In this document: positions 9,321-51,513 of the stretch, piece after piece
Layout: each line of letters begins with the position of its first letter
Position numbering within the stretch: position 1 is the stretch's first letter
Assembly (NCBI GenBank): GCA_964561825.1
Contig: CAZLSB010000002.1
Location: 1 to 52,886, forward strand
DNA: 52,886 nucleotides
DNA from: an uncultured Xanthomonas sp.
Lineage (GTDB): Bacteria; Pseudomonadota; Gammaproteobacteria; Xanthomonadales; SZUA-5
Direction: 5' to 3'
The notes under the pieces: model-generated
The model's database searches: none
Told to the model about the DNA's origin: nothing
The model's input: the letters and a program-made list of their open reading frames with translations, nothing else
Program-made: the position numbers and the translations under genes

Positions 9321-10505
9321 ATGAACCCCACCAGTGTACTGCCGTCGCTCTGCGCAGTCGTGGTGGCGCTCGCGTCTACGGCGTACTTGGCGCGTTTCCT
9401 ACGCCTGCCAGACCTTGCGCAACGCTATACCGCCATTGACGGCTTACGTGGTTACCTTGCGTTTTTTGTTTTTCTGCACCACGCCTGCATTTGGTATTTC
9501 TTTTTGCAGTCGGGCGAATGGCGACCGCCGCCATCTAACCTGTACACGCATTTTGGGCAAAGCAGTGTGGCGATGTTCTTCATGATCACCGGATTCTTAT
9601 TTTTTTCTAAGCTGTTGGATGGGCGACAGACCATTGACTGGTTGCGATTATTTGTTTCGCGCTTTTTGCGATTAACGCCCGCATACCTAGTGATGCTGGC
9701 GATCATGTTTGGCGTTGTGATGCTGGTTAGTGACGCTGACATTAGATCGGCCCCTGTTCAGGTATCAAAAGATGCCTTGCGCTGGATGTCGTTTACCATC
9801 CTTGGCGCTCCCGATTTGAATGGTCTTGCAGACACCTGGAGAATAACCGCCGGGGTAACCTGGAGTTTGCCTTATGAGTGGTTTTTCTATTTCTCATTGC
9901 CGCTACTGGCCTTAACTACAGGTTCTGCGGTGCCCTTGAGGTATCTTTTGCCCGCCGCAGCGGCGGTCCTAGGAATGCTTTGGGTATGGGAGCCCTTGCT
10001 ACCGCATTTTTTGTCGTTTTTGACCGGAATTATTGCCGCGCTTTGCGTGCGATCAAGTTATGTTCGCGTGCTCACTGCATCGCGATGGGCGGCCGTTTTC
10101 GCTTTTGCTTGCCTCGCCGTCATGGTAAATTATTTGCCGACCAGCAACGCCTATCTGAAAGCAATACCGCTGGCCTTGGCTTTTATTGTCATTGCGTGCG
10201 GGAATAGTCTATTCGGCCTATTGACGCATCGTTTGTCGCGAATGCTCGGTGAGATGGCCTTTAGCTTGTATTTGATGCACGGAATACTGCTTTATGTGAG
10301 CTTTAGCTTGATCTTTCGCACAGATACCATTGCCGCACTGTCCGCCGTCCAGTATTGGGCGCTGGTCATCAGCTTAATCCCTATACTTCTGGGTATTTGC
10401 GCTATGTCCACGCATTTTGTCGAACAACCCGCCATGCGCCAAACCAGTCGTTTAACCCAATGGTTGCGAGGTTCACTAACGAGGCATAAAGCGGCGCGCG
10501 ATTAG
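9321..10505 (+). CDS. Acyltransferase family 3 (OafA/YrhL-like) integral membrane protein
   Basis: 394 aa and about 10 hydrophobic helices. The N-terminal motif IDGLRGYLAFFVFLHH is typical of acyltransferase_3 O-acyltransferases. Confidence 0.8.
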   Translation: MNPTSVLPSLCAVVVALASTAYLARFLRLPDLAQRYTAIDGLRGYLAFFVFLHHACIWYFFLQSGEWRPPPSNLYTHFGQSSVAMFFMITGFLFFSKLLDGRQTIDWLRLFVSRFLRLTPAYLVMLAIMFGVVMLVSDADIRSAPVQVSKDALRWMSFTILGAPDLNGLADTWRITAGVTWSLPYEWFFYFSLPLLALTTGSAVPLRYLLPAAAAVLGMLWVWEPLLPHFLSFLTGIIAALCVRSSYVRVLTASRWAAVFAFACLAVMVNYLPTSNAYLKAIPLALAFIVIACGNSLFGLLTHRLSRMLGEMAFSLYLMHGILLYVSFSLIFRTDTIAALSAVQYWALVISLIPILLGICAMSTHFVEQPAMRQTSRLTQWLRGSLTRHKAARD

Positions 10506-11246
10506 GTGGACTAACAATGCGATGGTCAAAGCCAGGATGAATGCCGCGCCAATTCCGAGCTCCGGCAGCGTGAGCGCCAACACCGCGCAGAAACAGGCAA
10601 ACCCGAAATAGCCGTACACCATGCCACGCAACAATCGTGTGGCAAATTGCCCGCCTGATTGCCGGTGCGAGAAACCCACCAGCACTGTGCTCATGACCGG
10701 AAACATCGCCAATAGACCGCTTAGACGCGGCCCCAGATGGTTAGCGAGGTAAGTCACCAGCAGCACCAACGTGGCCGCGCTTATCAAACGCCAGGGCAGG
10801 TCGCTGGTCACCGTTTTGCCGGTGACCCAGCGCGGTACCGTCGGAAAAGCCAATGGCACCAACAACAGCGCGGCAATCACGCTCACAAATGACACGATCA
10901 GGCTGGTATCCAATTGGCGCAGCGCCAGCACGGACAGGCCGTACAGGCACAATGCAATCAACATGCAGTCCGGCCAGCTGCGGCGCTGTGCGGCCCAGGC
11001 GTAGGCCAGGCTGAAGGTCAAAATAGCCAGCACGGCGAGCAGCGTGCCGTGCGCGGCGGTCGCGGCAAACGCTGCGCCTTGCTCCAGCGCGATAAACCAC
11101 AAGATGGGTCCAGACAGGATTGGAAAGGCCGATAACCATCCCGCTACCTCCGGACCCCAGCGCCGTCCAGCCAGCGTAACCGCCAAGATCAACGTCGGTA
11201 CGAGCAATAACTTCAGCAACAATAAGGTCATAAAGCGTTCATCCAA
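10476..11246 (-). CDS. Polytopic membrane protein of unknown function with an internal duplication
   Basis: 256 aa, almost entirely hydrophobic. The motif GP-x8-FP recurs at exactly 140-aa spacing (GRRWGPEVAGWLSAFPILS vs ANHLGPRLSGLLAMFPVMS). Its 3' end overlaps the acyltransferase by 30 nt. Confidence 0.6.
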   Translation of the reverse strand: MDERFMTLLLLKLLLVPTLILAVTLAGRRWGPEVAGWLSAFPILSGPILWFIALEQGAAFAATAAHGTLLAVLAILTFSLAYAWAAQRRSWPDCMLIALCLYGLSVLALRQLDTSLIVSFVSVIAALLLVPLAFPTVPRWVTGKTVTSDLPWRLISAATLVLLVTYLANHLGPRLSGLLAMFPVMSTVLVGFSHRQSGGQFATRLLRGMVYGYFGFACFCAVLALTLPELGIGAAFILALTIALLVHLIARRFMPR

Positions 11247-27233: not shown

Positions 27234-28259
27234 ATGAGCGTCGCGCGCATCGCTGTCCTTGGAGCAGGCTCCTGGGGCACCGCATTAGCGACGCTACTGG
27301 CGCGCAATGGGCTCGACGTGCGCCTCTGGGGGCGGCGGGCTCAAGCGCTGATTCGCCACGGCGAAACGCTGGAGAATCCGCAGTATCTGCCGGGCATAGC
27401 CTTGCCCGGCAATATTCAATACGGCACCGATCTGGCCGCAGCGGTCGATCAGGTGGATGCCTTGCTGCTGGTCGTGCCCAGCCATGCATTCGCCGAAACC
27501 TTAGCTTTAGTGCGGGCCTTCTTGCCGGCGCAATTGCGCGGGCTGGCTTGGGCAACCAAGGGCTTTGAGCCGGGCTCTGGCGATTTCCTGCACCAAGTTG
27601 CGGATCGCTTGCTTGGTGTCGAACTGCCCAAAGCGGTCGTGACTGGGCCGAGTTTTGCCAAAGAAGTTGCGCTCGGTTTGCCGAGCGCAGTTACCGTGCA
27701 CTCCGATGACACAGCGTTCGCCCAGCGCATCGCCATCGCGCTGCATGGGCCGAACTTCCGCGCGTATAGCGGCAATGACATTCGCGGTGCTGAACTCGGT
27801 GGCGCGATGAAAAACGTGTTGGCGGTCGCCACCGGCATTTGCGATGGCATGCAGCTTGGCCTGAATGCGCGCGCCGGCCTGATTACCCGCGGCCTGAATG
27901 AAATGCTGCGCTTAAATCTGTGCCTGGGCGGTCGCGCTGAAACGATTATCGGCCTAGCCGGTTTAGGCGATCTGGTGCTGACCTGCACGGGTGATTTGTC
28001 CCGCAATCGACGCCTGGGCTTGGCGCTGGGGCGCGGTATCCCATTGGCGCAAGCAGTGGCTGACATTGGCCAAGTGGTCGAAAGTGTGCAAACCGCCGAC
28101 GAGGTGATGCGACTGGCACAGCGTTTTGCGCTGGATTTGCCGATTTCTTCGCGCGTGCAAGCGGTACTGCATGGCGATACCACGCCAGCCGATGGGCTGA
28201 AATCCTTGCTGGCGCGTGACCAGAAACCCGAATATCCCGCGGGTTTAGGATTAGGGTGA
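27234..28259 (+). CDS. gpsA: NAD(P)H-dependent glycerol-3-phosphate dehydrogenase
   Basis: Contains [14 protein letters not shown] and [13 protein letters not shown]. It shows the classical secB-gpsA adjacency. Confidence 0.93.
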
Positions 28260-28480
28260 GGCGGGATTTCGGGCCACCTGTCGCCGCCGAACGCAGGCCT
28301 AAATTCCCACGGGCCGCCGTAGTAGGCCGGGTCCTCGCGTCAGCCAAGCGCGCTCCCACAGGCTGCTGCTCTCCATGCATTGTCAAAGTGCATTGCCCCA
28401 GGTATCTGGGCAAGGCCTAAGCGAAACACTCAGCCTTCACGCTGCTAACATCCTCCGACCATCCTTGATGATGTTGCCGC

Positions 28481-31400
28481 ATGGAACTGTTCGGTTTGCT
28501 GGCGGTACTGTTGTTCTTCTATCTGCTGATCGCCCCGGCGGTTGCTTGGGTACGCGCCAGCAACCTTCGTGCGGAAAGCAACGAGAACCAGCGTAAGTTT
28601 GATCTACAGACGCGGGAAATTCGCGAACTGGCCAAACAAGTCAGCGCTTTGCGCGAACACCAACTGGTTTTGCTGCAGCGTTTAGACAAGCTGGTGAGCG
28701 GCACGCAGCAAGACGAAGAGCAAGCTGCCCCGCTGCAGCAACCGAGCGCGCAGCAGCCCGCCCCGGTTCAGCAACCGAGCACACGCATTGTCGATGCGCT
28801 GCAGGCGCAGACGCCTAAACCACCGCAGCGCAGTGCCAGCCCAGAAGTTCGCTTTGAGCCTAGTGAATTTGGCATTGCGCCTGCGCAATCGCCCAGCACA
28901 ACGCCACCTGTAAGCAAGCCCAGCGCCGAGCCCGCTAAGGCGCCGCCGGCAACATTGCCCATCACCCCACAAAGCTGGGCGCTGGAACCGCTGGCAAAGC
29001 CCGAGCAGTCGGAAATCATTGAGGTCTCCGCAGCCCCAGTCGCGCCACCGCCCATTAAAGTGGCTGAAACGATCGCTGTCGCGGCGGCACCGCCGCAGCC
29101 CAGGGCCTCCGGCGATGCGCGCACGGCAGAAGCGGTGTGGACGCCCAAACCGCCACGCCGGCCATTTGACGAGCCGCGGCCTGCGCCCAGCGATTTGCAG
29201 GTGCAGATGTCGGCGTTTTTCCAGGCAGCCAAGGGTTGGTTATTTGGTGGCAATCTGGTCGCCAAGATCGGTTTGATGATCTTGTTTATCGGCGTGGCAT
29301 TCCTGCTGCGCTTTGCATCGGCCTATGTAGTAGTGCCGATTGAAGTGCGTCTGGCCGCCATTGCGGCCGGCGCAATCGCGCTGCTCGGCTGGGGCTGGCA
29401 TATCCGCACTAAACGTCCGGGCATTGCCTTGCCGGCGCAAGGCGCAGCTTTGGCAACCTTGATGCTGGTCACCTTCGGTGCCTTCAAGCTGTATCACTTG
29501 TTGCCCAGTGGCGCCGCGTTTGCTTTGCTGTTGCTGCTGGTCGCGTTCACCTGTGTGCTGGCGGTTATGCAAGATGCGCTGTGGTTGGCGGTGTTTGGCA
29601 TCGTCGGCGGTTTTGCGGTGCCCATCTTGACGTCCACCGGCAGCGGCAGTCATGTCGCACTGTTCAGCTATTACGCGCTGCTCAACGCCGGCATTCTGGC
29701 GATCGCTTGGCGGCGCGCGTGGCGTTCGCTCAATCTGCTGGGCTTTTTATTCACCTTTGTGATTGGCACCGCGTGGGGCGCGCAAAACTATTCAGCCGAA
29801 CATTACGCCAGCTCGCAGTTCTTCTTGGCGCTGTTTTTGGTGTTTTACGTGGTCATCGCGGTGCTGTATGCGTGGCGACAAGCGCCGCAATTTAAGTTCT
29901 ACGTCGACGCCACGTTGGTCTTTGGTGTGCCCACCGTGGCCATGGGTTTGCAATACGGCTTGGTCAAAGACATGCCGTTTGGCAGTGCCTTGTCAGCATT
30001 GTCTTTGGGCTTGTTTTACGCCTGCACGGCGATGGTTTTGTGGCGTTGGCGGCAGGGCAGTTTGCGCTTGCTGGTCGAATCATTCCTGGCCCTCGCGGTG
30101 GTGTTTGGCACTCTGGCGATTCCTTTGGCCTTCGATGGTCGATGGACTTCAGCGGTCTGGGCCTTGGAGGGTGCTGGCATCGTGTGGATCGGTTTGCGCC
30201 AGAAACAAGCCTTGGTGTGGCGCTTTGGCATCCTGGTGCAATTCTTCAGTTGGTTGGCCTTCCTGCGCGCATTGACCGGCTTGGACCCGATCGCCGCATT
30301 GGCCAATCACATCAGTTTGGGCTTTGTGGTACTCGGCGCCACTGGCGTGTTCTTGGCATTGACCTTCCGTCGGCATGGTTTACACGACGACGATGCGCCC
30401 GGCGAGCGACAGGGTTTTGGCCGGATGGCCAATGGGTTTATCGCAATCGCCGTGCTTTGGCTGCTGGCTGGGATGTGGGTGGAGGTATGGCTGCGGGTGA
30501 CCGGCGTACATCGCGCCAGCTTGTATGTGTTGACCGCGATTGCCTTGGTGTTTGGATTGCAGTGGTTGGGCCGTCGGGCTAACTGGCGCCTGCCGGATCT
30601 GCTGGCTGGCGCTGTCACTGCGGTAGCCGGACTGACCTTCTTGGCGCTGATGTCGCGCTATATGGATTGGCGCAACATCAGTGTCTATGCACAAAGCAGT
30701 CTGGCGCAGGTGCTGTCGAACAGCGCGCTGATCGGCGGTGCCCTGCTCAGTGCGGCCGCCCTGGTATCCGCTTTTGCCTTCAAACGCCGAGTTGCCGAGT
30801 TAGAGGCTGAGGTACTCGACGCCACTGATGCGCGCCGTTCGGCGACCATCTGGCTCAGTCTGGCGATCTTCTGGTGGTGCGGTTTCGCCTTGCATGGCGC
30901 GGCGCACGCCTTAGCTTGGCTGACCAGTGCCGGTGAGCTGGCCGAGCCCTGGTATCACATCCCGTTTTGGGCTGCTTACAGCGTGGGTCTGGCTTTATCC
31001 GCGTGGGGCACGATGCTCCTTACGCAGGCTTACGCGTTTCCAAATCGGAACTTCGTATTGCGTCTGCTGTGGCCGTCGCTATCGGCATTGGGAACGTGGT
31101 TCTACTTGGTGCAGACCTCGCCCAAGCTGATGATTGAGCAGATGTTGGAGTTCGATGCGCCGCTGGCGCTGCCCGCAGACGGCGTGCAGGATGTGCTGAT
31201 GGCGTTTGCCGGCGGGCCCGTATTGGGCAGCGTGATTTTGCTGCTGCTCGCTTGGATCGGCATGCAAAAGATAAGCAATAGCAAACGAAGCCCCGATCTG
31301 AGCGCCGAACAACGCAGCACCGGCGTGGCGGTTTGGCTGATCGGCTTGGCCGTGGTTTTGTATGTGCCGCTGATCGACAGCCTGTCGGTGTTGAGCACGC

Positions 31401-32536
31401 AGTTGTTGGTCGCGCAAGGGGCCGTGATTGGCAATCTGGGCTGGCTTAGTTATGCCGACGCACGACTGCTGTGGATGAGTTTGGCGGCGCTGGCGCTGTT
31501 GCCGCTCGCCAATAGCAGGGTGCAGGCGCTGCGCTGGGTTACGCTGCCCAGCGCGCTGCAGCAGACGCTGGCTACCCTGGTGATCCTCGGCATGCTCTAT
31601 GCGCAAAGCCGATTGCCAAGCTTTGGCACGGCGATTGCGATGGTGTCGACCTGGGCCGCAATGGCTTGGTGCTTGCGTTATTGGCACGCCCGCTGGGGCG
31701 TATCGGCGGGTGGTGTGAAGGCCCTGCATTTTGCGCGCGTCATTGCACCGTGGGTGATGCTGGCACCGCTGGTGTCGTTAAATCTGATTCCCTTGCTGGC
31801 CGCGCCGGAAGCGTCCAGCGACGATTGGGTGATGGCGGGCATGTGGCCCGATTATTTGGCCGCGTGGGTGTCGATTGGTGCGTTGTTTGTCGGCTTGGCG
31901 CAAGTGCGTCGCGCCGGCTGGCCGCTGAGACCCGTGCACCTGTGGTACGGCGCCACGGTGATTCCCTGCGCGGCGCTTTGGGCGCTGTTGCTGGTGATCT
32001 ACTGGAATCTGCGCCAGGACGGCAGCATGGCGCCGTTGCCGTACCTGCCGATCCTCAATCCACTGGATTTGACCAGCGCATTCGTCGCATTTTTGCTCGC
32101 CGATCTTTGGCGTTTGCACGCGGCCGATGCCAGCGTCGCACAACGGCTCTTCGCGATTCGCGCCGCAATGGCCTTGGTATTTGGCTGGTTCAATTTGATG
32201 TTATTGCGCACGGCCGCGCAGTTCTTGGGTTTGCCTTATCGTTTTGCGCCGCTGTTTGAATCGCAGTTTGTGCAGGCGATGTTGTCCTTGGTTTGGACCT
32301 TGTGCGCATTTGCGCTGATGCGCTACGCAGCGCGCAAACTGTCAAAACCACTGTGGATGGTCGGTGCCGCGTTACTCGGTGTGGTGGTGCTGAAACTTTT
32401 CCTGATCGATTTGAGCAAGGTCGGCAGCGTCGCCCGAATCGTATCGTTCATGGGTGTAGGTGGGCTGATGCTGCTGATTGGTTACCTAGCACCATTACCA
32501 CGTGAAGCAGAGAACGAGGAGGGATCCACTCGATGA
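28481..32536 (+). CDS. DUF2339-like giant polytopic membrane protein
   Basis: 1351 aa. It has an N-terminal TM helix, a charged coiled-coil-like segment, about 170 aa rich in P/A/Q/S, then more than 20 hydrophobic helices. The helices begin with the signature WLFGGNLVAKIGLMILFIGVAFLLRFA, which I associate with DUF2339. Confidence 0.8.
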   Translation: MELFGLLAVLLFFYLLIAPAVAWVRASNLRAESNENQRKFDLQTREIRELAKQVSALREHQLVLLQRLDKLVSGTQQDEEQAAPLQQPSAQQPAPVQQPSTRIVDALQAQTPKPPQRSASPEVRFEPSEFGIAPAQSPSTTPPVSKPSAEPAKAPPATLPITPQSWALEPLAKPEQSEIIEVSAAPVAPPPIKVAETIAVAAAPPQPRASGDARTAEAVWTPKPPRRPFDEPRPAPSDLQVQMSAFFQAAKGWLFGGNLVAKIGLMILFIGVAFLLRFASAYVVVPIEVRLAAIAAGAIALLGWGWHIRTKRPGIALPAQGAALATLMLVTFGAFKLYHLLPSGAAFALLLLLVAFTCVLAVMQDALWLAVFGIVGGFAVPILTSTGSGSHVALFSYYALLNAGILAIAWRRAWRSLNLLGFLFTFVIGTAWGAQNYSAEHYASSQFFLALFLVFYVVIAVLYAWRQAPQFKFYVDATLVFGVPTVAMGLQYGLVKDMPFGSALSALSLGLFYACTAMVLWRWRQGSLRLLVESFLALAVVFGTLAIPLAFDGRWTSAVWALEGAGIVWIGLRQKQALVWRFGILVQFFSWLAFLRALTGLDPIAALANHISLGFVVLGATGVFLALTFRRHGLHDDDAPGERQGFGRMANGFIAIAVLWLLAGMWVEVWLRVTGVHRASLYVLTAIALVFGLQWLGRRANWRLPDLLAGAVTAVAGLTFLALMSRYMDWRNISVYAQSSLAQVLSNSALIGGALLSAAALVSAFAFKRRVAELEAEVLDATDARRSATIWLSLAIFWWCGFALHGAAHALAWLTSAGELAEPWYHIPFWAAYSVGLALSAWGTMLLTQAYAFPNRNFVLRLLWPSLSALGTWFYLVQTSPKLMIEQMLEFDAPLALPADGVQDVLMAFAGGPVLGSVILLLLAWIGMQKISNSKRSPDLSAEQRSTGVAVWLIGLAVVLYVPLIDSLSVLSTQLLVAQGAVIGNLGWLSYADARLLWMSLAALALLPLANSRVQALRWVTLPSALQQTLATLVILGMLYAQSRLPSFGTAIAMVSTWAAMAWCLRYWHARWGVSAGGVKALHFARVIAPWVMLAPLVSLNLIPLLAAPEASSDDWVMAGMWPDYLAAWVSIGALFVGLAQVRRAGWPLRPVHLWYGATVIPCAALWALLLVIYWNLRQDGSMAPLPYLPILNPLDLTSAFVAFLLADLWRLHAADASVAQRLFAIRAAMALVFGWFNLMLLRTAAQFLGLPYRFAPLFESQFVQAMLSLVWTLCAFALMRYAARKLSKPLWMVGAALLGVVVLKLFLIDLSKVGSVARIVSFMGVGGLMLLIGYLAPLPREAENEEGSTR

Positions 32537-33957
32537 AGCGCGTATCGGTTGCACTGCTGAGCTTGCTGCCGTTGTTTGCCAGCGCCGATCCAGCGCCCCT
32601 GCACAAGCCTACGCCAGCTGAGTTTGCGATGCGTTTGCCGGTGGCGGTGAGCGGTGAAAACGGTGTTGTGCAAATGCTGCTGCCGATCGAGGTGTACCTG
32701 CACGCGCGCAGCGCGGAACTGGCCGATTTGCGCGTTTACAACGATGCCGGTCAGCTGTTGCCGTTTGCGTTGCACCGCCCTAGCTATCGCACGCGCATTG
32801 AGTTTCGCGAGCACGCCACCGCGATGTTTCCGATCTACGTGCAAGCCTCCGACGCGCGCGATGACCTGGAATTGCAATTGCGCACCAACATGGATGGCTC
32901 GCTGCTCACCATTAACGCCCGTGGTTCGGAACCGCCCTCCAGCCGCAAGCAGCTAAGTTCGGTGATTGTTGATCTGGGCCCCAGTGACCGGCATGAGTTA
33001 TTGGAAAGCTTGGCTTTCGACCTACCAGAGCAAACCCACGATTACCGCGCGCGTCTGGCGATTGAGCGCAGTGACGATCTACGCCTGTGGGATGGCGTGG
33101 CGCACGGCAGTGTCGATTGGATCAGCGCCGCCGACGCCAGCCGGCGTTTGGTCGTTGACCGGATCGACTTGCCCAATGGCGATGGTCGCTATTTGAAAGT
33201 GCGCTGGTTAGAAGGCGAACCGATGGGCTTTGCGACGATCCGCGCGCGCTGGCGCAGTGCGTCGGTGCCACTTGATCCCACGCTGGAAGTGCAATTGAGC
33301 GGCACGCCAGGACCGATCGATGGCGACTTTGTGTACGCCACCAGCCCCGCCATTGCCGCCACCGCGATTGGACTTGATCTTGCCGACCCCAACTCGGTGA
33401 TGCCGGTGTCGATTGGCTTTTACCGACAAATGCGCCAGCCCAAACCGCAGTTGTGGCTGCTGCCGAGCATCGAAAGCACCTTCTACCGCTTGAACCACAA
33501 TGGCCGCGAACGCCAATCCAGCCGTATTCACATCGGCGCTTTGTCCGGTGCGCAATGGGTAGTCCGGCCGCAGACCGGCGGGCACGCGGCGCCCAAATTG
33601 GTGCTCAGCTGGCAACCGCAAACCTTGGTCTTTAATGCCCAAGGCAGCGGCTTTTATCTGGCCTTTGGCGCCGATGCGCAGGTCCATACGCGCTGGTTAG
33701 GCGGCGTGGCGCAGATGGCGCAAGTGGCGCCTGGATTTAGCCGCGAGGAAATCGAACAATTGGAGCGCGCCAAACCGGGTGTGCTGCAAAGCACGCCAAC
33801 AACCAGCATGAATGCGCCGGTCGAAGTCGTTGCGACAGACGCCGATGCCGCACGCATGCGGCGCTTCGCACTGTGGAGCGTGCTCGGCTTTGGGGTGTTG
33901 GTGCTGGGCTTCATGACTTGGCGTTTGTACGGGCAAATGCAGACATCAAGCAAGTAG
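32533..33957 (+). CDS. DUF3999-like exported protein with a C-terminal membrane anchor
   Basis: 474 aa. Its ATG overlaps the upstream TGA (ATGA). Signal peptide ..LLSLLPLFASA, the motif LADLRVYNDAGQLLPFAL, and a C-terminal TM helix FALWSVLGFGVLVLGFMTWRLY. Confidence 0.75.
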   Translation: MKRVSVALLSLLPLFASADPAPLHKPTPAEFAMRLPVAVSGENGVVQMLLPIEVYLHARSAELADLRVYNDAGQLLPFALHRPSYRTRIEFREHATAMFPIYVQASDARDDLELQLRTNMDGSLLTINARGSEPPSSRKQLSSVIVDLGPSDRHELLESLAFDLPEQTHDYRARLAIERSDDLRLWDGVAHGSVDWISAADASRRLVVDRIDLPNGDGRYLKVRWLEGEPMGFATIRARWRSASVPLDPTLEVQLSGTPGPIDGDFVYATSPAIAATAIGLDLADPNSVMPVSIGFYRQMRQPKPQLWLLPSIESTFYRLNHNGRERQSSRIHIGALSGAQWVVRPQTGGHAAPKLVLSWQPQTLVFNAQGSGFYLAFGADAQVHTRWLGGVAQMAQVAPGFSREEIEQLERAKPGVLQSTPTTSMNAPVEVVATDADAARMRRFALWSVLGFGVLVLGFMTWRLYGQMQTSSK

Positions 33958-34133
33958 AAGAGACGGGATTTCGGGCTCGATCGCCCGGTCGTCGAACCCC
34001 AAAGCGGCTCCGCCGCTGGACTAACCGACAGCGCGCCTGAAGCGCTGCTGGCCGCATGCTGCACTGCGGGTAGAGTGGCAGAGCGGCGAGCGCTATCTTT
34101 ACGCTTCCTTCGCAAATCAGCGACGCTAAAGTC

Positions 34134-37100
34134 ATGAGTGCTGTTCGCAGTTCTGACGCCGGCCCTGGGCTGGCACACGTGCAGGAAGCCCTGAAGTCGA
34201 TCGTCACCGGGCCCAAGCTAAAAGAAGCGCTGGCCTTTGCCGCGCGTTTGTTTGAGCACTTGCCAGAGGACGAGTTCGGCGAACGTCCCGCCGTGGTTTG
34301 GGCGAAGCTGACGCTCGATTTGCTGCGCTTCTTCCGCGAGCGTCCGGCACTAGCGGCGAAGGTGCGCGTTTACAACCCCAGCATTGAAGACCATGGCTGG
34401 GAATGCACCCACACGGTCATTCAGATCGTCAACGACGACATGCCATTTTTGGTCGACACCGTGGCGCTGGCGATCACCCAAGACCACACCTTGACCCACG
34501 TCATCATCCACCCGGTATTCAAAGTTCAGCGTGATCCAGGGGGTCATATCCTCGGTTTTGGTGCCGAAGAGGGTCTACGCGCCGAATCGATCATGCATAT
34601 CGAGGTGGATCGGCAGACCGAGCCGGGACGCCTGGAAGCACTGGCCGAAAGGATCGAACGCGTGCTCGCCGACGTGCGCTCCTGCGTGCGTGACTTTGAC
34701 GCGATGCATCACCGCTTGCTGGCGCTGGCTGAAGGACTCGGTGAGCGCGAATTGCTGCACGATGCCGAACAAGTGGTCGAGTGTGCGGATTTTCTGCGCT
34801 GGGTCGCCGACGACCACTTCACCTTCTTAGGTTATCGCGCCTACGAAACCACCCAAATTGACGGCGTCAATGTGCTGCGCGCGGTGGCCGGCAGCGGGCT
34901 GGGTTTGTTGCGCGGTTCCGAGACGCACTTGCCAGTGCGGCCGCTGGCGTCCCTGGCGGCGCGTGATTTGCCGCCTAACACCTTGCCAGACCTATTGATC
35001 CTGTCGAAAACCAACGCCCGATCAACCGTGCATCACCCCGGCTATATGGATTATATCGGCGTGTTGCGCTTTGACGAAAACGGTCGTGCTATCGGCGAAG
35101 ATCGTTTCCTAGGCTTGTACACATCCACCGCATACACCACGCGGCCCAAGGATATTCCGCTGATCCGCACCAAAGTCGATGCGGTGTTTGCGCTGAGCAA
35201 CCTGCATCGCAGTGGTCATGGCGCCAAACGCTTGCAACATCTGCTAGAAACGCTGCCGCGCGAAGAACTGTTCCAGTCCACCGTCGATGAGTTATTCCAA
35301 ACGGCGATGGGCATTCTTAATTTGCAGGAACGCCAACGCACACGATTATTTGTGCGCCGCGATCGTTACGGTCGCTATTTCTCGTGTTTGGTTTACATCC
35401 CACGCGACCGCTTTACCAGCGAGATTCGTGATCGCATCGAACAAACCTTAAAGCGCGCATTTGAAGGCGAGCGCTTTGATTCTTCAGTGGCGGTTTCCGA
35501 ATCCGTACTGGCGCGTTTGCACGTGGTGGTGCGTCCCAAAGCGGGGGAAAAACCTGAATACGATGTGCGTGAGATTGAGGCCAAACTGGCGCAAATCGTG
35601 CGCAACTGGCAAGACGAACTGCGCGATATTTTGGTGCAAAAACATGGCGAAGAGCGCGGGCTCAAGCTCAGTAATCGCTATGGCAAAGCGCTGCCGATGG
35701 GCTACATCGAAGCGGTCACGCCGTGGATTGCGGCGACCGATGTCGAAGCCGCGGCGCAATTAAAAGACAGCCACGATGTGCGTCTGCAGTTGTATCGACC
35801 GCGCAAAAAGAGTGATGGCGCACTGCGTTTTAAGGTGTTCCGCATGGGCACACCCATCGCTTTGTCCGATGCGCTGCCGATGTTGGAAAACATGGGCCTG
35901 CGGGTCAATTCTGAGCACCCGTATGAAATGCAAATACCCGGCATCAATATCCATATCCAGGATTTTGAAGTGGAATTGTTGGTGCCATTGGGCGAAAACT
36001 TAGACCAGGCGCGCGAGCGTTTCCAGCAAGGTTTCGAGCAAGTTTGGCGCGGTCGGGTTGAGAACGATGGATTCAATCGACTGGTGCTGGCCGCCGATCT
36101 GCATATCCGTGAAGTCACCATGCTGCGCGGCTACTGCAAGTATTTGCTGCAGACCGGCGTGACCTATTCGCAGGCTTATATGGAACGCGCGCTGGCCGCG
36201 CATCCGGCGATTACCCGACTATTGGTCGAATTGTTCAACGCAAGCTTTGATCCAGATCGCGAAGCGCGTAGTCACGCTGACGACGCGCGGCGCCGCATGG
36301 AGCGTGAATTCGGCACGGTCATGACCGATGCCCTGCGCGCCAAATTGCCGGCGCTGGTCGGCAACGTGTTGGATGCCTACATCAAACCGCGCGCTGAGCA
36401 GAGCGCGGTGCTGGTGCACGCACTCGCCGAATTGCTGGAACAAGTTTCCAGCCTGGATGAAGACCGCATTTTGCGGGCTTTCAAAGACTGTATGCATGCC
36501 ACCTTGCGCACCAATCTCTTTCAGCAGCAGGATGGCAAAGCCAAGGACTATCTGTCCTTCAAGTTCGATTCCAGCAAAGTGCCGAATCTGCCCAAACCGG
36601 TGCCGTTCCGCGAGATTTTTGTGTACTCACCGCGCGTTGAAGGTGTGCATCTGCGCATGGGCCTAGTCGCCCGCGGTGGATTGCGCTGGTCCGATCGACG
36701 TGAAGATTTCCGCACCGAAGTGCTGGGCCTGATGAAAGCGCAGCAGGTCAAAAACACGGTCATCGTGCCGGTTGGCTCGAAGGGCGGTTTTTACGTCAAA
36801 CAATCGCCCGTCGGCGGTGATCGGGATGCGGTGCTCGCCGAAGGCGTGGCCTGTTATCGCACTTTCATCCGCGGTTTGCTGGACATTACCGACAACATTG
36901 TCGACGGCGCTGTGGTGCCACCGGAGCGCGTGGTGCGCCGTGATCCCGACGATCCGTACTTGGTGGTTGCGGCTGACAAAGGCACCGCGACCTTCTCCGA
37001 TATTGCCAACGCGCTCAGTCAAGAATATGGCTTCTGGCTGGACGACGCCTTCGCGTCGGGTGGCTCCAAAGGCTACGACCATAAGAAGATGGGCATCACG

Positions 37101-39844: not shown

Positions 39845-40445
39845 CTACGCGCTCGATTTGGCTGTGGCCGGCGACAGCTGCAAGGGCGCCAGACCCGCCG
39901 CTGCCAAACTGCTGGCTGCGCTGGCAGCGCCGTCGCCATCCCACACCTCGCGTTCGCCGCATAACACCGCGGCTACGTAGCTGAGCGGGGTCAGATCGCC
40001 GCTGGCGCCTACCGAACCCTCCGATGGAATGCGCGGCAACAAATCGCTGCAACAATCCACACAATTACCGCAGTAAGCGATAACTCACGCCGGAATAACC
40101 CTGCGCCAACGAGGCCAAGCGCGCCGCCAACACCGCACGCGTGTGCACCCGGCTCAGCAATACGCCGCTGCCGCAGCCATGATAGGTATACAGCCGCTGC
40201 GGCAATTCCAGCGCCAAACCAGACGGGATGCTGACCGTGCAGGATCCCCGTAACCGGTGGTTACCCCATAGATCACGCCATCTTCGGCCAGCACGCGCTC
40301 CAGAAAGTCCGCACCGGCCTGGATGCGCTCGCAAAACGCGTCTTATCGTCCAATTGCGCAACGCGCAGTCGATAGGCCAAGGCCACAACGTCTTCAATGG
40401 TCAACGGGGAGCCGTCAAACAGGACCGGGGGTTGCGCCTTGAGCA
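39845..40445 (-). pseudogene. Aromatic amino acid/histidine ammonia-lyase gene remnant (frameshifted, 3'-truncated)
   Basis: Homology is split over three frames: MLKAQPPVLFDGSPLTIEDVVALA..., then GVTTGYGD / SCTVSIPSGLALELPQRLYTYHGCGSGV...LAQGYSGVS, then IPSEGSVGASGDLTPLSYVAAVLCGEREVW (the MIO-forming ASG motif). Only about 200 of roughly 510 expected residues remain. Confidence 0.75.
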
Positions 40446-48561: not shown

Positions 48562-49101
48562 TTACCTTTTGAGTGCCGATTCAATGTCCGCGCGCAACTC
48601 AGGTTCGTGATACTCGCCCAGTTTGCGGGTGTGCAAGCGGCCTTGCCGATCGACGATGACGGTAAACGGCAGGGCGTCACGATCGTTGCCAAAGGCGCGC
48701 ATCAGCGCGAAATCGCTAAATGACGCCAGCATGATCGGATAATCAATAGCCATTTCGCCGGCAAATTTGCGCACCGCTTCTGGCTCGTCCAGCGCTACTC
48801 CCAATATTTCGACGTGCTGTGCGCCGAATTCTTTGCCGAGCGCCTGTAGCACGGGGATTTCGCGACGACACGGCGCGCACCACGGCGCCCAAAAGTTAAT
48901 CACTTGCACCCGGCCCAGCGCTTGCGAGCGGCGCTGCATAGCACCGTCCAGCGTAGGTAACTCAAAATCAATCGCAGGCGCGCCGATCGCCAAACTTCCG
49001 GGCGGTGGATTGAGGCCAAACCACGCGTGACTGGCCCACAAACCACCCGCGCCCGCGCCTAGCGCCGCGATCAGGATCAGCGCTTGGGTTTTGCCACTCA
49101 C
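48562..49101 (-). CDS. TlpA/ResA-type periplasmic thiol:disulfide oxidoreductase
   Basis: 179 aa. It has an N-terminal anchor and the thioredoxin motif WAPWCAPCRRE. Its start overlaps the dsbD stop by 4 nt. Confidence 0.85.
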   Translation of the reverse strand: MSGKTQALILIAALGAGAGGLWASHAWFGLNPPPGSLAIGAPAIDFELPTLDGAMQRRSQALGRVQVINFWAPWCAPCRREIPVLQALGKEFGAQHVEILGVALDEPEAVRKFAGEMAIDYPIMLASFSDFALMRAFGNDRDALPFTVIVDRQGRLHTRKLGEYHEPELRADIESALKR

Positions 49102-51305
49102 CGCTTGGCTGCCCAGGCCAATGCCTCACTGACGCGGTTCCTGGTCAACAATGTCGGCAGCACTTTGGGCGCTTCGTCATTGGCCGGAAAGACCACGTAC
49201 AGCGGCACACCGACCGCCTTGTGCGTTTGCAGGAATGCGCTAATCGCCGGATCCTCATTGGTCCAATCACCCTTCAGATAGACCACAGCATACGTCTTCA
49301 GCGCAGCGTGAAAATCGTCTGTCGATAAAACCAGGCGTTCATTGACTTTGCAGGTAGCGCACCAATCGGCGGTCATATTGACAAAAACCGGTTGACCCGC
49401 GGCCTGCAAACTTGCCAGTCGCGCGGCGCTATAGACCTCAGATACATCGTTCGCTGGCCTTCGATTGCCAATCGCCGAAGCATCTAAGCCGGCGATAAAA
49501 CGCAGTGGCCAGAGCGCCACGGCAAGCAGGATCAGCACCAAGCCCCAGCGGCGCAGCGAGGAGTGCGCTCGATGCCGCTCAAACCACCATAAAGCCATCG
49601 CCAACGCCACACCACCTGCCAACACCGCCCCGGCGCCGTCCATGCCCACTTGGTGGCCTAGCACCCACAATAACCAAACGCCGGTCAGGTACATCGGAAA
49701 CGCGAGTGCCTGTTTCAGCGTTTCCATCCACGCGCCGGGGCGCGGCAGGCGCTTGGCCAAACCCGGCACAAAACCAATCAGCAAAAATGGCAAGGCCAAG
49801 CCCAAGCCCAAAGCCAAGAAAATGGACAAGGCCCAGATCGGCGGCTGCGCAATCGCGTAGGCGAGTGCGCCACCCATGAATGGCGCCGTGCACGGACTGG
49901 CAACCACACAGGCCAGCACGCCGGTAAAAAACGCGCCCTTGGCGCCCTCGTCTTCGGTCAGATTTTGGCCAAGTCCGCCCCACGACGCACCAAAGGCGAT
50001 GACGCCCGACATCGATAGTCCAATCGCCAACATCACGTAGACCAGCAAGCCGACAAATGCCGGTTGCTGCAACTGAAAGCCCCAGCCGAGCGCGGCTCCA
50101 CCGCTACGCAGCGCCAATATCGCCATGCCCAACAGCGCGAACGACACCAACACACCCGCCGTGTACCACAGGGCGTGGCGACGCGCGTAACTAGCGTCGT
50201 GGGCGCCCTGCGCCAGGCCCAGCGCCTTTAACGACAGAATGGGCAGCACGCAGGGCATCAGGTTGAGAATGAGCCCGCCAAGTAAGGCGGCCAACAAGGC
50301 TGCCAAGATGCCCATCGGCGCATCGACAGGCGTTTTCGTACCGACTTGCGCGGTGATTGCGGTCGCCTGGGCGCCCTGCCCGGCGGGCAAATCGATTGCC
50401 ACGCTGCGCCGCATGATGGGGTAACAAATGCCATGGTCCTTGCAGCCTTGATATTCGGCATCCAAGGTGAAGGTTTGCGCGGCGCTGCTGTCGCGTACCA
50501 CCGGCACGGGCAGCTCGATGGACTCGAAATAGACCTGCACTTGTCCGAAGTGCGCGTCTTCATGCGCTTGCGCGGCAGGCCATTGCGGTCTGTTGAGCGT
50601 GATGCCAGCAGTGCTGCTGTGCAGACGTGTTTTGTCGCGATACAAATAGTAACCAGGCGCGATGATGAAGCGCGCCAGGATTTGATCGGATGAGGTTGCG
50701 ATCGCCTCGAAGCGAAAGGCCTGATCTTCCGGCAACGCGTCCTGCGTGCCACCGACCAGACCGACCGTTGCGCTCGGCGTGCCAAAATTGAGCGCGCCAA
50801 CCGCAGGCGTCGGGCGGGGCCATGCATCTGGCACCGCGGCGCCGGGATTGTTACTCGGCGGCAGCGGCACACTCAGCCGCGTGCGCTGTGGCGGATAACA
50901 CACACCGACATCCGCGCAACCTTGGAAGCGCACCTCCAGATCCAAACTTTCGATCGCTGCTGGCAACGCTGGCAAGGGCTGGCTGATGCTCAGCGATTGT
51001 CGATAGGTTTCGACCTCACCGAAGAATTCATCGGTCTTTGGTTCACCATCGGGCACCTGGAAGGCCGGCAAGGCCGGTTCACCGCCCACCACGGCCACAC
51101 CCAGTCGATGCCGATACAAATAGTAGCCATCGGCGATTACAAAGCGCAGCTGCAAGCCCTCGCGCGTGGGCGCCTCGACAGACAGCACAAACGCTTGCTC
51201 AACGGGCAGTAATTCGGATTCATCCACCGCGGCCAGCGCGCTAGCGCCGCTCAGCACCAATCCAAAAAATGCCAGGCAACGCCATAGCGAGGAAACAGAA
51301 GTCAT
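49098..51305 (-). CDS. dsbD: Thiol:disulfide interchange protein DsbD with a duplicated N-terminal (alpha) domain
   Basis: Two consecutive alpha-like modules are present: QAFVL..DGYYLYR..DEFFG..FQGCADVGVCYPP and QAFRF..PGYYLYR..DAHFG..YQGCKDHGICYPI. They are followed by a TM core (MPCVLP, ASPCTAP) and a C-terminal thioredoxin domain (ADWCATCK). ATG at 51305. Confidence 0.88.
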   Translation of the reverse strand: MTSVSSLWRCLAFFGLVLSGASALAAVDESELLPVEQAFVLSVEAPTREGLQLRFVIADGYYLYRHRLGVAVVGGEPALPAFQVPDGEPKTDEFFGEVETYRQSLSISQPLPALPAAIESLDLEVRFQGCADVGVCYPPQRTRLSVPLPPSNNPGAAVPDAWPRPTPAVGALNFGTPSATVGLVGGTQDALPEDQAFRFEAIATSSDQILARFIIAPGYYLYRDKTRLHSSTAGITLNRPQWPAAQAHEDAHFGQVQVYFESIELPVPVVRDSSAAQTFTLDAEYQGCKDHGICYPIMRRSVAIDLPAGQGAQATAITAQVGTKTPVDAPMGILAALLAALLGGLILNLMPCVLPILSLKALGLAQGAHDASYARRHALWYTAGVLVSFALLGMAILALRSGGAALGWGFQLQQPAFVGLLVYVMLAIGLSMSGVIAFGASWGGLGQNLTEDEGAKGAFFTGVLACVVASPCTAPFMGGALAYAIAQPPIWALSIFLALGLGLALPFLLIGFVPGLAKRLPRPGAWMETLKQALAFPMYLTGVWLLWVLGHQVGMDGAGAVLAGGVALAMALWWFERHRAHSSLRRWGLVLILLAVALWPLRFIAGLDASAIGNRRPANDVSEVYSAARLASLQAAGQPVFVNMTADWCATCKVNERLVLSTDDFHAALKTYAVVYLKGDWTNEDPAISAFLQTHKAVGVPLYVVFPANDEAPKVLPTLLTRNRVSEALAWAAKR

Positions 51306-51513
51306 AGGCAGCAAACTCGGATGGGCGACGTGCAGCCCGCATCAGACTCGCAAGCGCCTACAAAGGTTCCTGTTGAATAAGGCGCTGCGATGAGCGGTTG
51401 GGTTTCGCGCGCCATCGAATGGCGTCGAACGCCCAAGGGAACCTCTGCACAAGGTCGTCGTTGGGAGCGCTCTTTTTCAGCCCAAAAAAGCACGCGGATG
51501 AATCTCACCACAC

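Follow-up and report, generated by a model that had tools for sequence, protein, structure and literature searches.

The closest described relatives of the genes considered here belong to antagonism resistance cluster 3 (arc3) of Pseudomonas aeruginosa, a Gac/Rsm-controlled cluster in which the DUF2339 protein Arc3A (PA5114) is encoded together with its partner Arc3B (PA5113) (Ting et al., eLife 2022, PMC8926400). In that bacterium, arc3A was the most critical gene for surviving the T6SS (type VI secretion system) phospholipase Tle3 of Burkholderia thailandensis, and its loss led to a build-up of lyso-phosphatidylethanolamine (LPE) and monolyso-cardiolipin (MLCL) (PMC8926400). We compared with this system a pair of adjacent genes carried by a stretch of 52,886 nucleotides (nt), hereafter the window, from contig CAZLSB010000002.1 of an uncultured Xanthomonas sp. 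The first gene encodes a DUF2339 protein (window A) and the second a DUF3999 protein (window B). Pfam identity, homology, and an architecture shared with the P. aeruginosa proteins place the window pair in the Arc3 family and, judged from its sequence, it is one more unexceptional representative of Arc3A/Arc3B, a system already published, and not an undescribed one. We further consider it probable that the two proteins act as Arc3A and Arc3B, with a protective role against injected phospholipases exerted through an inner-membrane complex. A first-pass annotation of the window had presented the pair as an undescribed system with no assigned function, a description that had to be abandoned because its homologues have been characterized as Arc3A/Arc3B (PMC8926400).

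According to the same study, Arc3A and Arc3B co-immunoprecipitate in P. aeruginosa, and both protection against Tle-type phospholipases and prevention of LPE/MLCL build-up have been shown for P. aeruginosa and P. protegens (PMC8926400; bioRxiv 10.1101/2024.10.26.620397). Arc3A homologues of P. protegens, P. syringae, Burkholderia cenocepacia, and Citrobacter rodentium restored the defence of P. aeruginosa; the protection given by arc3A was independent of re-acylation by LplT/Aas, and Arc3A alone was sufficient (PMC8926400). In addition, arc3A and arc3B orthologues adjoin each other in many bacteria, and fusions of the two exist (PMC8926400). A 2025 preprint reports that arc3A also guards against TseL of Vibrio cholerae and Tle1 of Acinetobacter baylyi (bioRxiv 10.1101/2024.10.26.620397). 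Two hypotheses were put forward by the authors for the mechanism of Arc3A, namely sequestration and turnover of lysophospholipids by the transmembrane (TM) array, or recruitment of, and interference with, the lipase (PMC8926400). The labels A and B are swapped in places in the text of PMC8926400 and in one figure legend; in the P. aeruginosa sequences described below, PA5114/Arc3A is the polytopic protein, and PA5113/Arc3B is the one bearing a lipobox and a C-terminal helix.

DUF2339 is named in the eLife paper, whereas DUF3999 is not (PMC8926400), and none of the papers in the literature library searched mentions DUF3999. Since PMC8926400 is silent on DUF3999, the link was tested directly on P. 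aeruginosa sequences. To reach the locus, metagenome contigs were scanned with that half of the ΔPA5113_R1 primer of PMC8926400 which is genomic sequence (GCAGCCATGACGCGCTCC). Of the 92 loci that matched, six had other primer sites known for PA5113/PA5114 as well, and these followed each other in the expected order. In one of the scanned loci, situated on a 518-kb contig (L028), four of the published primer sites for the two genes were present. Its arc3A open reading frame (ORF) encodes 1201 amino acids (aa) starting with MQWIF…, while the published primer decodes as MQWIS…, a difference taken to be strain variation. The arc3B ORF of this contig encodes 464 aa, overlaps arc3A through an ATGA junction, and has exactly the MTRS… start and the …NKP end given by the primers. 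Downstream of the pair lies estA (MIRMALKPLVAAC…, with GDSL and autotransporter domains), and a typA-like gene is situated further upstream. When compared with Pfam, this Arc3A matched PF10101 with 558 bits, and this Arc3B matched PF13163 with 489.5 bits over the full profile, which amounts to an explicit equation of Arc3B with PF13163 that is new here.

The window pair belongs to the same two families. The arc3A-like gene (28481..32536; positions are those of the window and of its + strand unless a − is given) encodes a 1351-aa polytopic inner-membrane protein of the DUF2339 family, which matched PF10101 with 491.2 bits (E 8.4e-147) in two stretches, the best covering residues 256-847. The arc3B-like gene (32533..33957) encodes a 474-aa DUF3999 protein that matched PF13163 with 222.6 bits (E 1.4e-65) over profile positions 2-424 of 424. 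Both scores are far over the Pfam gathering cutoffs (33.6 bits for PF10101 and 30 bits for PF13163), and the assignment to DUF2339 and DUF3999, proposed in the first-pass annotation, was thus upheld by the hidden Markov model (HMM) scan. At E values up to 10, the Pfam scan found nothing in window A or window B beyond these two families; the NCBIfam scan returned no model matching either protein, and the PADLOC anti-phage defence models gave zero matches for the pair. In direct comparison, window A was 51% identical to P. aeruginosa Arc3A over 404 aa (E 1e-98) and 46% identical over a further 173 aa (E 6e-21), and window B was 25% identical to P. aeruginosa Arc3B over 376 aa (E 1e-17). Under identical hydropathy settings, 35 peaks were counted in window A and 35 in P. 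aeruginosa Arc3A, and 35 TM segments have been predicted for PA5114 (PMC8926400). The arc3 genes of P. aeruginosa share with the window pair their Pfam families, the A-then-B order, and the ATGA junction.

In the window, this stop/start overlap occupies positions 32533..32536 (junction letters tcgATGAag), with the ATG of arc3B at 32533-35 and the TGA of arc3A at 32534-36. A strong Shine-Dalgarno sequence for arc3B, AGGAGG, is located at 32517..32522, 10 nt before the ATG and inside the arc3A coding sequence, where it falls within the stretch coding for the acidic tail of window A. GGAGG-type sites were found at the equivalent place in two Xanthomonadales loci (L001 and L006) and in the Enterobacter (L008) and Ralstonia (L009) loci discussed below. 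No obvious Shine-Dalgarno sequence precedes arc3A in the window or in loci L001-L006. The pair is flanked by gpsA and by a gene encoding a 1645-aa NAD-glutamate dehydrogenase (gdhB). The coordinates, lengths, and strand originally given for the two ORFs, their overlap, and the two flanking genes were all borne out.

The association of the two genes extends well beyond the window. A contig scan with window B yielded at least six close Xanthomonadales loci, and a DUF2339 gene was situated directly upstream of the DUF3999 gene in all six of the close loci from Xanthomonadales/Lysobacterales metagenome-assembled genomes (L001-L006). The same adjacency was found on a secondary replicon of B. cenocepacia, on a Ralstonia megaplasmid, and in an Enterobacter record, where the genes are annotated as these DUFs, as well as in P. 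aeruginosa and in two further metagenomic lineages that hold the most distant contig-placed relatives of B. In every examined locus with enough sequence, arc3B was the next gene downstream of arc3A and had the same orientation. This agrees with the statement, in the earlier reading of the window, that PF10101 and PF13163 are neighbours in many proteobacteria, which is now seen in Xanthomonadales, Burkholderia, Ralstonia, Enterobacter, and Pseudomonas. The overlap of 4 bp recurs in loci L007, L008, and L009 (from B. cenocepacia, Enterobacter, and Ralstonia), in L010, L011, L014, and L015, and in P. aeruginosa L028; L006 has an overlap of 11 nt, and gaps of 95-145 nt separate A from B in L002-L004. 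The gpsA and gdhB flanks are not kept even in close relatives, so the two genes remain side by side in differing surroundings.

An exhaustive HMM search returned 4850 DUF3999 representatives at 50% clustering, and two of the top matches, P0317 and P0265, carried both domains on one chain. The chain of P0317 runs from the true C-terminus of A through an Arg-rich linker into the hydrophobic leader of B, and on this arrangement the protein is a credible A-B fusion. P0265 was rejected as a fusion; with an Arg-rich stretch that looks out of frame and a shortened DUF2339 match, it is probably a frameshift artefact. The kept overlap and P0317 lend indirect support from sequence to an association of Arc3A with Arc3B, and the large inner-membrane complex of both proteins that had been suggested from the window alone is plausible in view of P0317 and of the co-immunoprecipitation in P. 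aeruginosa (PMC8926400). A search for homologues of the A core found no named Pseudomonas protein among the best 120 of 3660 matches, and a profile search of a word-indexed database with a 23-sequence DUF3999 alignment added nothing to the single-sequence search.

Some of the loci examined have a context of their own. In the Enterobacter hormaechei record NZ_CP056156.1 (L008), a 361-kb 'plasmid', arc3AB is located between malZ and ahpC/acpH and amid the housekeeping genes brnQ, proY, queA, tgt, yajC, secD, and secF. The order malZ-A-B-acpH is repeated on a 902-kb metagenomic contig (L010), and what is recorded as a 'plasmid' may be a chromid or a piece of chromosome that was wrongly assigned. 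Regarding genes of acyl-CoA synthetase type, a 372-aa protein (P0054) combines a DUF3999 fragment and an AMP-binding domain in one gene call, and an acyl-CoA-synthetase-like ORF (L009:2-1042, judged by eye from its PLFHVTG motif) is situated upstream of the pair in Ralstonia, at a distance of about 3 kb; the two cases accord with the statement in the literature that arc3 often has genes of aas type as neighbours.

The 1351-aa window A had been described as a protein of four parts with more than 20 hydrophobic helices, and both hydropathy and composition confirm this layout. It opens with a TM helix (aa 1-27, 28481..28561; hydropathy peak 2.63), and the position of basic residues C-terminal of this helix suggests an N-out/C-in orientation. 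A charged heptad-like helix, delimited by hydropathy and composition, follows (aa ~31-75, 28571..28705); it has counterparts in the proteins of Enterobacter, Burkholderiales, and P. aeruginosa, and its sole database match was DivIC-like and sub-threshold. Next comes a low-complexity linker rich in P, A, Q, and S (aa 76-246, 28706..29218), composed of 20% Pro, 17% Ala, and 11% Gln and differing in length across the family. The polytopic core then opens at the AKGWLFGGNLVAKIG motif. P. aeruginosa Arc3A has the same four parts, that is, a hydrophobic N-terminus, a charged helix, and a P/A linker followed by AAKGWLFGGNTVLRIG, and the core start AKGWLFGGN is common to both proteins.

Within the core, homology and alignment delimit two conserved blocks. 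The N-core block (aa 247-631, 29219..30373), which opens with AKGWLFGGNLVAK, contains the 51% match, which corresponds to residues 169-569 of Arc3A and is densely populated with invariant alignment columns; its identity to the B. cenocepacia protein is 54%, and that of the second conserved block is 45%. The C-terminal block (aa 1176-1344, 32006..32512) includes the motif PLPYLPxxNPLD, also has invariant columns, and gave the 46% match, to Arc3A residues 1021-1193. A variable middle (30611..31528) bears a tandem internal repeat recognized by HHalign, in which aa ~711-855 align with aa ~866-1016 (probability 93%, E 3e-7). The repeat consists of about 145 aa of TM helices (30611-31045 versus 31076-31528, +) and is a likely source of the variable number of TM segments in the family. 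The count of hydrophobic segments in window A ranged from 31 to 37 across hydropathy thresholds, and the AlphaFold2 (AF2) model of the core has about 40 helices with a predicted local distance difference test score (pLDDT) of 73.8. Counting for the positive-inside rule gave 15 versus 9 K+R in alternating loops, with the helix count itself being uncertain, and the Arg-rich linker and retained B leader of the fusion P0317 suggest that the C-terminus of A is cytoplasmic. A Foldseek search of the A model against the PDB returned nothing significant (best E 0.03, generic helical repeats), so no analogy with a transporter or an enzyme can be drawn; a PDB sequence search with A likewise gave no matches.

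Window B was correctly described at the outset as having a signal peptide, a soluble body, and a single C-terminal TM segment. Its Sec-type signal peptide (aa 1-18, …LFASA↓DP, 32533..32586) lacks a lipobox. It is followed by a periplasmic all-beta body (aa ~30-380, 32620..33672), modelled by AF2 with a mean pLDDT of 84.8, and by a TM anchor located by hydropathy at aa 444-463 (33862..33921), with the corresponding helix of the AF2 model spanning residues 436-471. The same succession of leader, beta body, and C-terminal TM helix is present in P. aeruginosa Arc3B. When the B model was searched with Foldseek, the best PDB matches were neuropilin b1b2, factor V/VIII, discoidin I/II, and CBM32, with E values of 2e-5 to about 1e-3 (1.1e-3 for CBM32) and a probability of about 1. 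The discoidin-like matches had a global TM-score of 0.13-0.2, an identity of 9-13%, and a root-mean-square deviation above 13 Å, and on the model the body is formed by tandem discoidin/galactose-binding-like beta-sandwiches, a resemblance at the level of the domain fold and not of family membership. A PDB search with the B profile gave no matches. Discoidin-like domains commonly bind membranes, glycans, or peptides, and the modelled body would be compatible with an accessory binding role of B at the membrane surface.

In the mechanism that we propose, Arc3A would be the working component, a very large inner-membrane protein preventing the build-up of lysophospholipids, and the threat countered would be a phospholipase A effector injected into the periplasm by a competitor. 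Arc3B would be translated in a coupled manner from the ATGA junction, exported by its normal signal peptide, and held in the inner membrane by its C-terminal helix, with the discoidin-like body at the periplasmic face and the protein bound to Arc3A as an accessory subunit. The window copy would have the same role as Arc3 of P. aeruginosa. Its TM array might sequester lysophospholipids or shield the lipid from the enzyme, these being the two hypotheses of the published authors, while B could bind lipids, glycans, or the toxin where it meets the membrane surface. In the window organism, the complex would work wholly at the inner membrane, without a lipid anchor in the outer membrane.

An alternative that we regard as possible, with the odds clearly against it, is that the pair acts on the toxin. 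On reaching the periplasmic face, the phospholipase would be recruited, trapped, or blocked by Arc3A and Arc3B, the discoidin-like domains of B doing the binding, and less lysophospholipid would be made. This is one of the two hypotheses of the authors, and the finding that LPE turnover in spheroplasts was unaffected by Arc3A speaks in its favour (PMC8926400), as does the resemblance of the predicted B domains to neuropilin b1b2 and to the factor V/VIII C domains, modules that bind proteins and membranes. However, the TM-scores behind that resemblance are low, pairwise assays showed little need for Arc3B, and Arc3A is functional by itself in a foreign host (PMC8926400). Moreover, the unrelated lipases Tle3, TseL, and Tle1 are all covered, a breadth that would be hard to reach by specific protein recognition, and cover extending over three lipase families that are unrelated to one another speaks slightly for a mechanism centred on lipid.

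Somewhat less probable still is that the pair serves as a general module of lipid homeostasis or envelope maintenance, handling lysophospholipids or damage to the membrane whatever their origin (endogenous turnover, environmental lipases, detergents, or antibiotics), so that toxin defence would be one manifestation among others. The pair does lie among housekeeping genes (rpoH, secB, gpsA, and gdhB) with no antagonism genes nearby, and the family is large, with its 4850 DUF3999 representatives and with DUF2339 reported in most phyla (PMC8926400). The authors themselves name environmental and endogenous lysophospholipids as threats (PMC8926400), and the arc1A arc3A aas mutant had an altered fluoroquinolone susceptibility (bioRxiv 10.1101/2024.10.26.620397). 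A DUF2339 frameshift (A47fs) that reached a frequency of 99% in Stenotrophomonas maltophilia with experimentally evolved antibiotic resistance, in a paper that draws no link to Arc3, points the same way. In P. aeruginosa, on the other hand, loss of Arc3A without antagonism left LPE stability and re-acylation unchanged, the phenotype being specific to the phospholipase effector, and Arc3A expression was low unless Gac/Rsm was activated (PMC8926400). As a separate observation, a transposon insertion (Tox-19) in a DUF2339 gene of P. syringae pv. tagetis abolished apical chlorosis, again in a paper without a link to Arc3.

The membrane anchoring of B bears on a third explanation, in which the pair would form a trans-envelope tether, with B lipidated in the outer membrane and its helix in the inner membrane, coupling both membranes. 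Arc3B of P. aeruginosa has been predicted to reach the outer membrane by N-terminal lipidation (PMC8926400), and the L028 protein has both a real lipobox, LLLGAC↓LS, which fits this prediction, and a C-terminal TM helix. In contrast, window B has a plain signal peptide with an AxA-type cleavage site (ASA↓D) and contains zero cysteines, which rules out an outer-membrane lipoprotein of the kind that Arc3B of P. aeruginosa is predicted to be; for this window, the tether is refuted by the sequence and is given next to no weight. No convincing lipobox was found in any of 65 close homologues of B, nor was one found in the Arc3B-like proteins of Burkholderia, Ralstonia, and Enterobacter. Among 134 full-length family representatives, a lipobox-like motif occurred in 12 (122 without), whereas the C-terminal helix was kept in 133 of the 134 DUF3999 family representatives. 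The lipoprotein anchor thus looks like a minority, lineage-specific trait that does not define Arc3, and, by its plain leader, lack of Cys, and C-terminal helix, window B must face the periplasm from an anchor in the inner membrane, which is how it had been pictured before. That the lipobox is rare, while the C-terminal helix and the junction with its overlap are nearly universal, speaks for a core mechanism at the inner membrane.

The idea of an undescribed envelope complex for sensing, polymer handling, or remodelling, which is how the pair was first read, draws on the missing NCBIfam name, the DUF labels that both proteins bear in Pfam, and the absence of a solved structure or known fold for A, but genetics, lipidomics, and co-immunoprecipitation are published for direct homologues, whose homology is confirmed here, and it retains hardly any credibility.

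Several observations weigh against the assignment of the window pair to phospholipase defence and have to be set beside it. The pair is known from its genes alone, and the phenotypes all come from other organisms. The identity of window B to Arc3B is no higher than 25%, and window B has no lipobox, so the trans-envelope role proposed for P. aeruginosa does not apply here, and the model of A has no structural relative pointing to an activity. In the published work, Arc3B contributed little in pairwise assays, the biochemistry of Arc3A in P. aeruginosa is still at the stage of hypothesis, and Gac/Rsm is restricted to Gammaproteobacteria while the arc genes are distributed more broadly (PMC8926400). 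No T6SS, Tle/Tli, or aas/lplT genes were found within the window. Finally, the arc3A leader showed no structured RsmA-type GGA hairpin, its folding being neither conserved nor better than that of shuffled sequences (z-scores of -0.9 to +1.6); all A genes start with CAUGGAA, in which the GGA is forced by the Met-Glu codons.

With these points taken into account, protection against injected phospholipases remains the reading that we prefer for the window pair. A more speculative extension, which we put forward tentatively and would not expect to hold in full, is that an outer-membrane-anchored, periplasm-spanning Arc3 is a peculiarity of Pseudomonas and that most of the family is a purely inner-membrane machine. 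In such a machine, a non-lipidated, discoidin-like Arc3B would sit on the periplasmic leaflet, and Arc3A, with its approximately 35 helices and no solved relative, could be a new kind of buffer against lipid damage that binds lysophospholipids or corrals them inside its TM array, with the cytoplasmic coiled coil and disordered linker as a further module, perhaps for oligomerization or regulation.

Regarding transcription, the hexamers of the promoter proposed in the first-pass annotation (TTGTCA-N17-TATCTG, 28380..28408) are present in the sequence, but they match the consensus poorly. The -10 element TATCTG has three of six consensus matches and lacks the final T, a scan of 28100-34300 for consensus sigma-70 sites returned none (1.4 expected by chance), and the hexamers are not kept upstream of A in six relatives, so that this promoter is a weak and unsupported candidate. 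A semi-conserved block, GnTAGCATCAnACnTTCACAAtt, occurs 20-45 nt upstream of arc3A in L001-L006 despite their differing upstream genes. Of this block, the window (28440-28470) keeps only TAACAT (28446..28451), which aligns with the TAGCAT of GnTAGCATCAnACnTTCACAAtt and may represent an alternative -10 candidate; a -35 element could not be identified for it. A sigma-54 -24/-12 element, looked for by eye in the aligned upstream regions, was rejected for its inconsistent spacing.

The pair had also been taken for an autonomous operon inserted between gpsA and gdhB, and this was not substantiated. Terminator-like sites are absent from both intergenic gaps, those found in the region occurring at chance frequency and all inside ORFs, and the GC content and the GC content at third codon positions (GC3) of the pair equal those of the flanks, leaving no compositional trace of insertion. 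The sole hint is a 13-bp repeat, CGGGATTTCGGGC, with two exact copies in the window that bracket the pair, the left at 28262..28274, 3 nt after the gpsA stop, and the right at 33964..33976, 7 nt after the arc3B stop; when one mismatch is allowed, it extends to a 17-mer. Repeats as long as the 13-mer are nothing rare in the window (174 pairs), and none of the 107 other loci fetched, relatives included, contained the 13-mer; it was consequently rejected as a conserved boundary element. The bracket may be a footprint of recombination or insertion, or due to chance.

Other features of the window lie outside the pair. The window is ordinary chromosomal DNA, and Rfam and tRNA scans gave no matches in it. 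Between gdhB and a UbiA-family gene, at ~39848-40397 (−), an aromatic amino-acid ammonia-lyase (PF00221, with the GSVGASGDL 4-methylideneimidazole-5-one motif) is split across frames, with PF00221 positions 53-110 and 120-178 in separate ORFs; it is either a pseudogene or the result of an assembly frameshift, and it adjoins the UbiA prenyltransferase gene and Trp-halogenase-like genes. A 738-aa DsbD homologue is encoded at 49098-51314 (−), and its two DsbD_N matches suggest a duplicated N-terminal domain; a redoxin/TlpA-like gene (48565-49101) is situated directly downstream on the same strand. Lastly, a 256-aa ORF with no Pfam match (10476-11246, −) is located between an Acyl_transf_3 gene and the ntrC/ntrB/glnA cluster.

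Taken as a whole, the comparison implies that a pair of DUF2339 and DUF3999 genes should be interpreted as Arc3A/Arc3B, despite the DUF labels still in use at Pfam and NCBI. Besides the equation of Arc3B with PF13163, what is new here is that the lipoprotein anchor is not general and that there are structural leads for both A and B; these observations offer constructs and hypotheses on how Arc3 prevents the accumulation of lysophospholipids.

When set against other known systems, the pair is distinct from each. Discoidin and F5/8 type C proteins are like B in their tandem beta-sandwiches, as seen in the B model, and several of them bind membranes or glycans; unlike them, B has no sequence match to their Pfam profiles at E values up to 10. 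Tli immunity proteins are small periplasmic or lipoprotein inhibitors, each directed at one effector and encoded beside it. Like Arc3, they protect from periplasmic T6SS lipases; Arc3, in contrast, is a giant membrane complex with no effector gene linked to it here, and it covers non-cognate lipases. The LplT-Aas system (known from Escherichia coli, and PA3267 in P. aeruginosa) counters phospholipase-made lysophospholipids, as Arc3 does, and the two are connected in that loss of both aas and arc3A is worse than loss of arc3A and in that aas adjoins arc3 in many genomes (PMC8926400). LplT-Aas nevertheless has no kinship in sequence or domains with window A or B, neither of which matched a major facilitator superfamily, acyltransferase, or AMP-binding Pfam profile at E values up to 10, and Arc3A, unlike LplT-Aas, does not contribute to the regeneration of phosphatidylethanolamine from LPE (PMC8926400). 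The differences from Arc3 of P. aeruginosa are of a lesser kind. Window A exceeds Arc3A by 150 aa, mainly through the greater length of its P/A/Q linker (the core motif lies at aa 253 versus ~175), the host is an uncultured, Rhodanobacteraceae-like relative of the Xanthomonadales, estA does not follow the pair, which has another genomic context, and the Gac/Rsm control reported for P. aeruginosa arc3 is not evident. In itself, the Arc3 copy of this window is not unusual.

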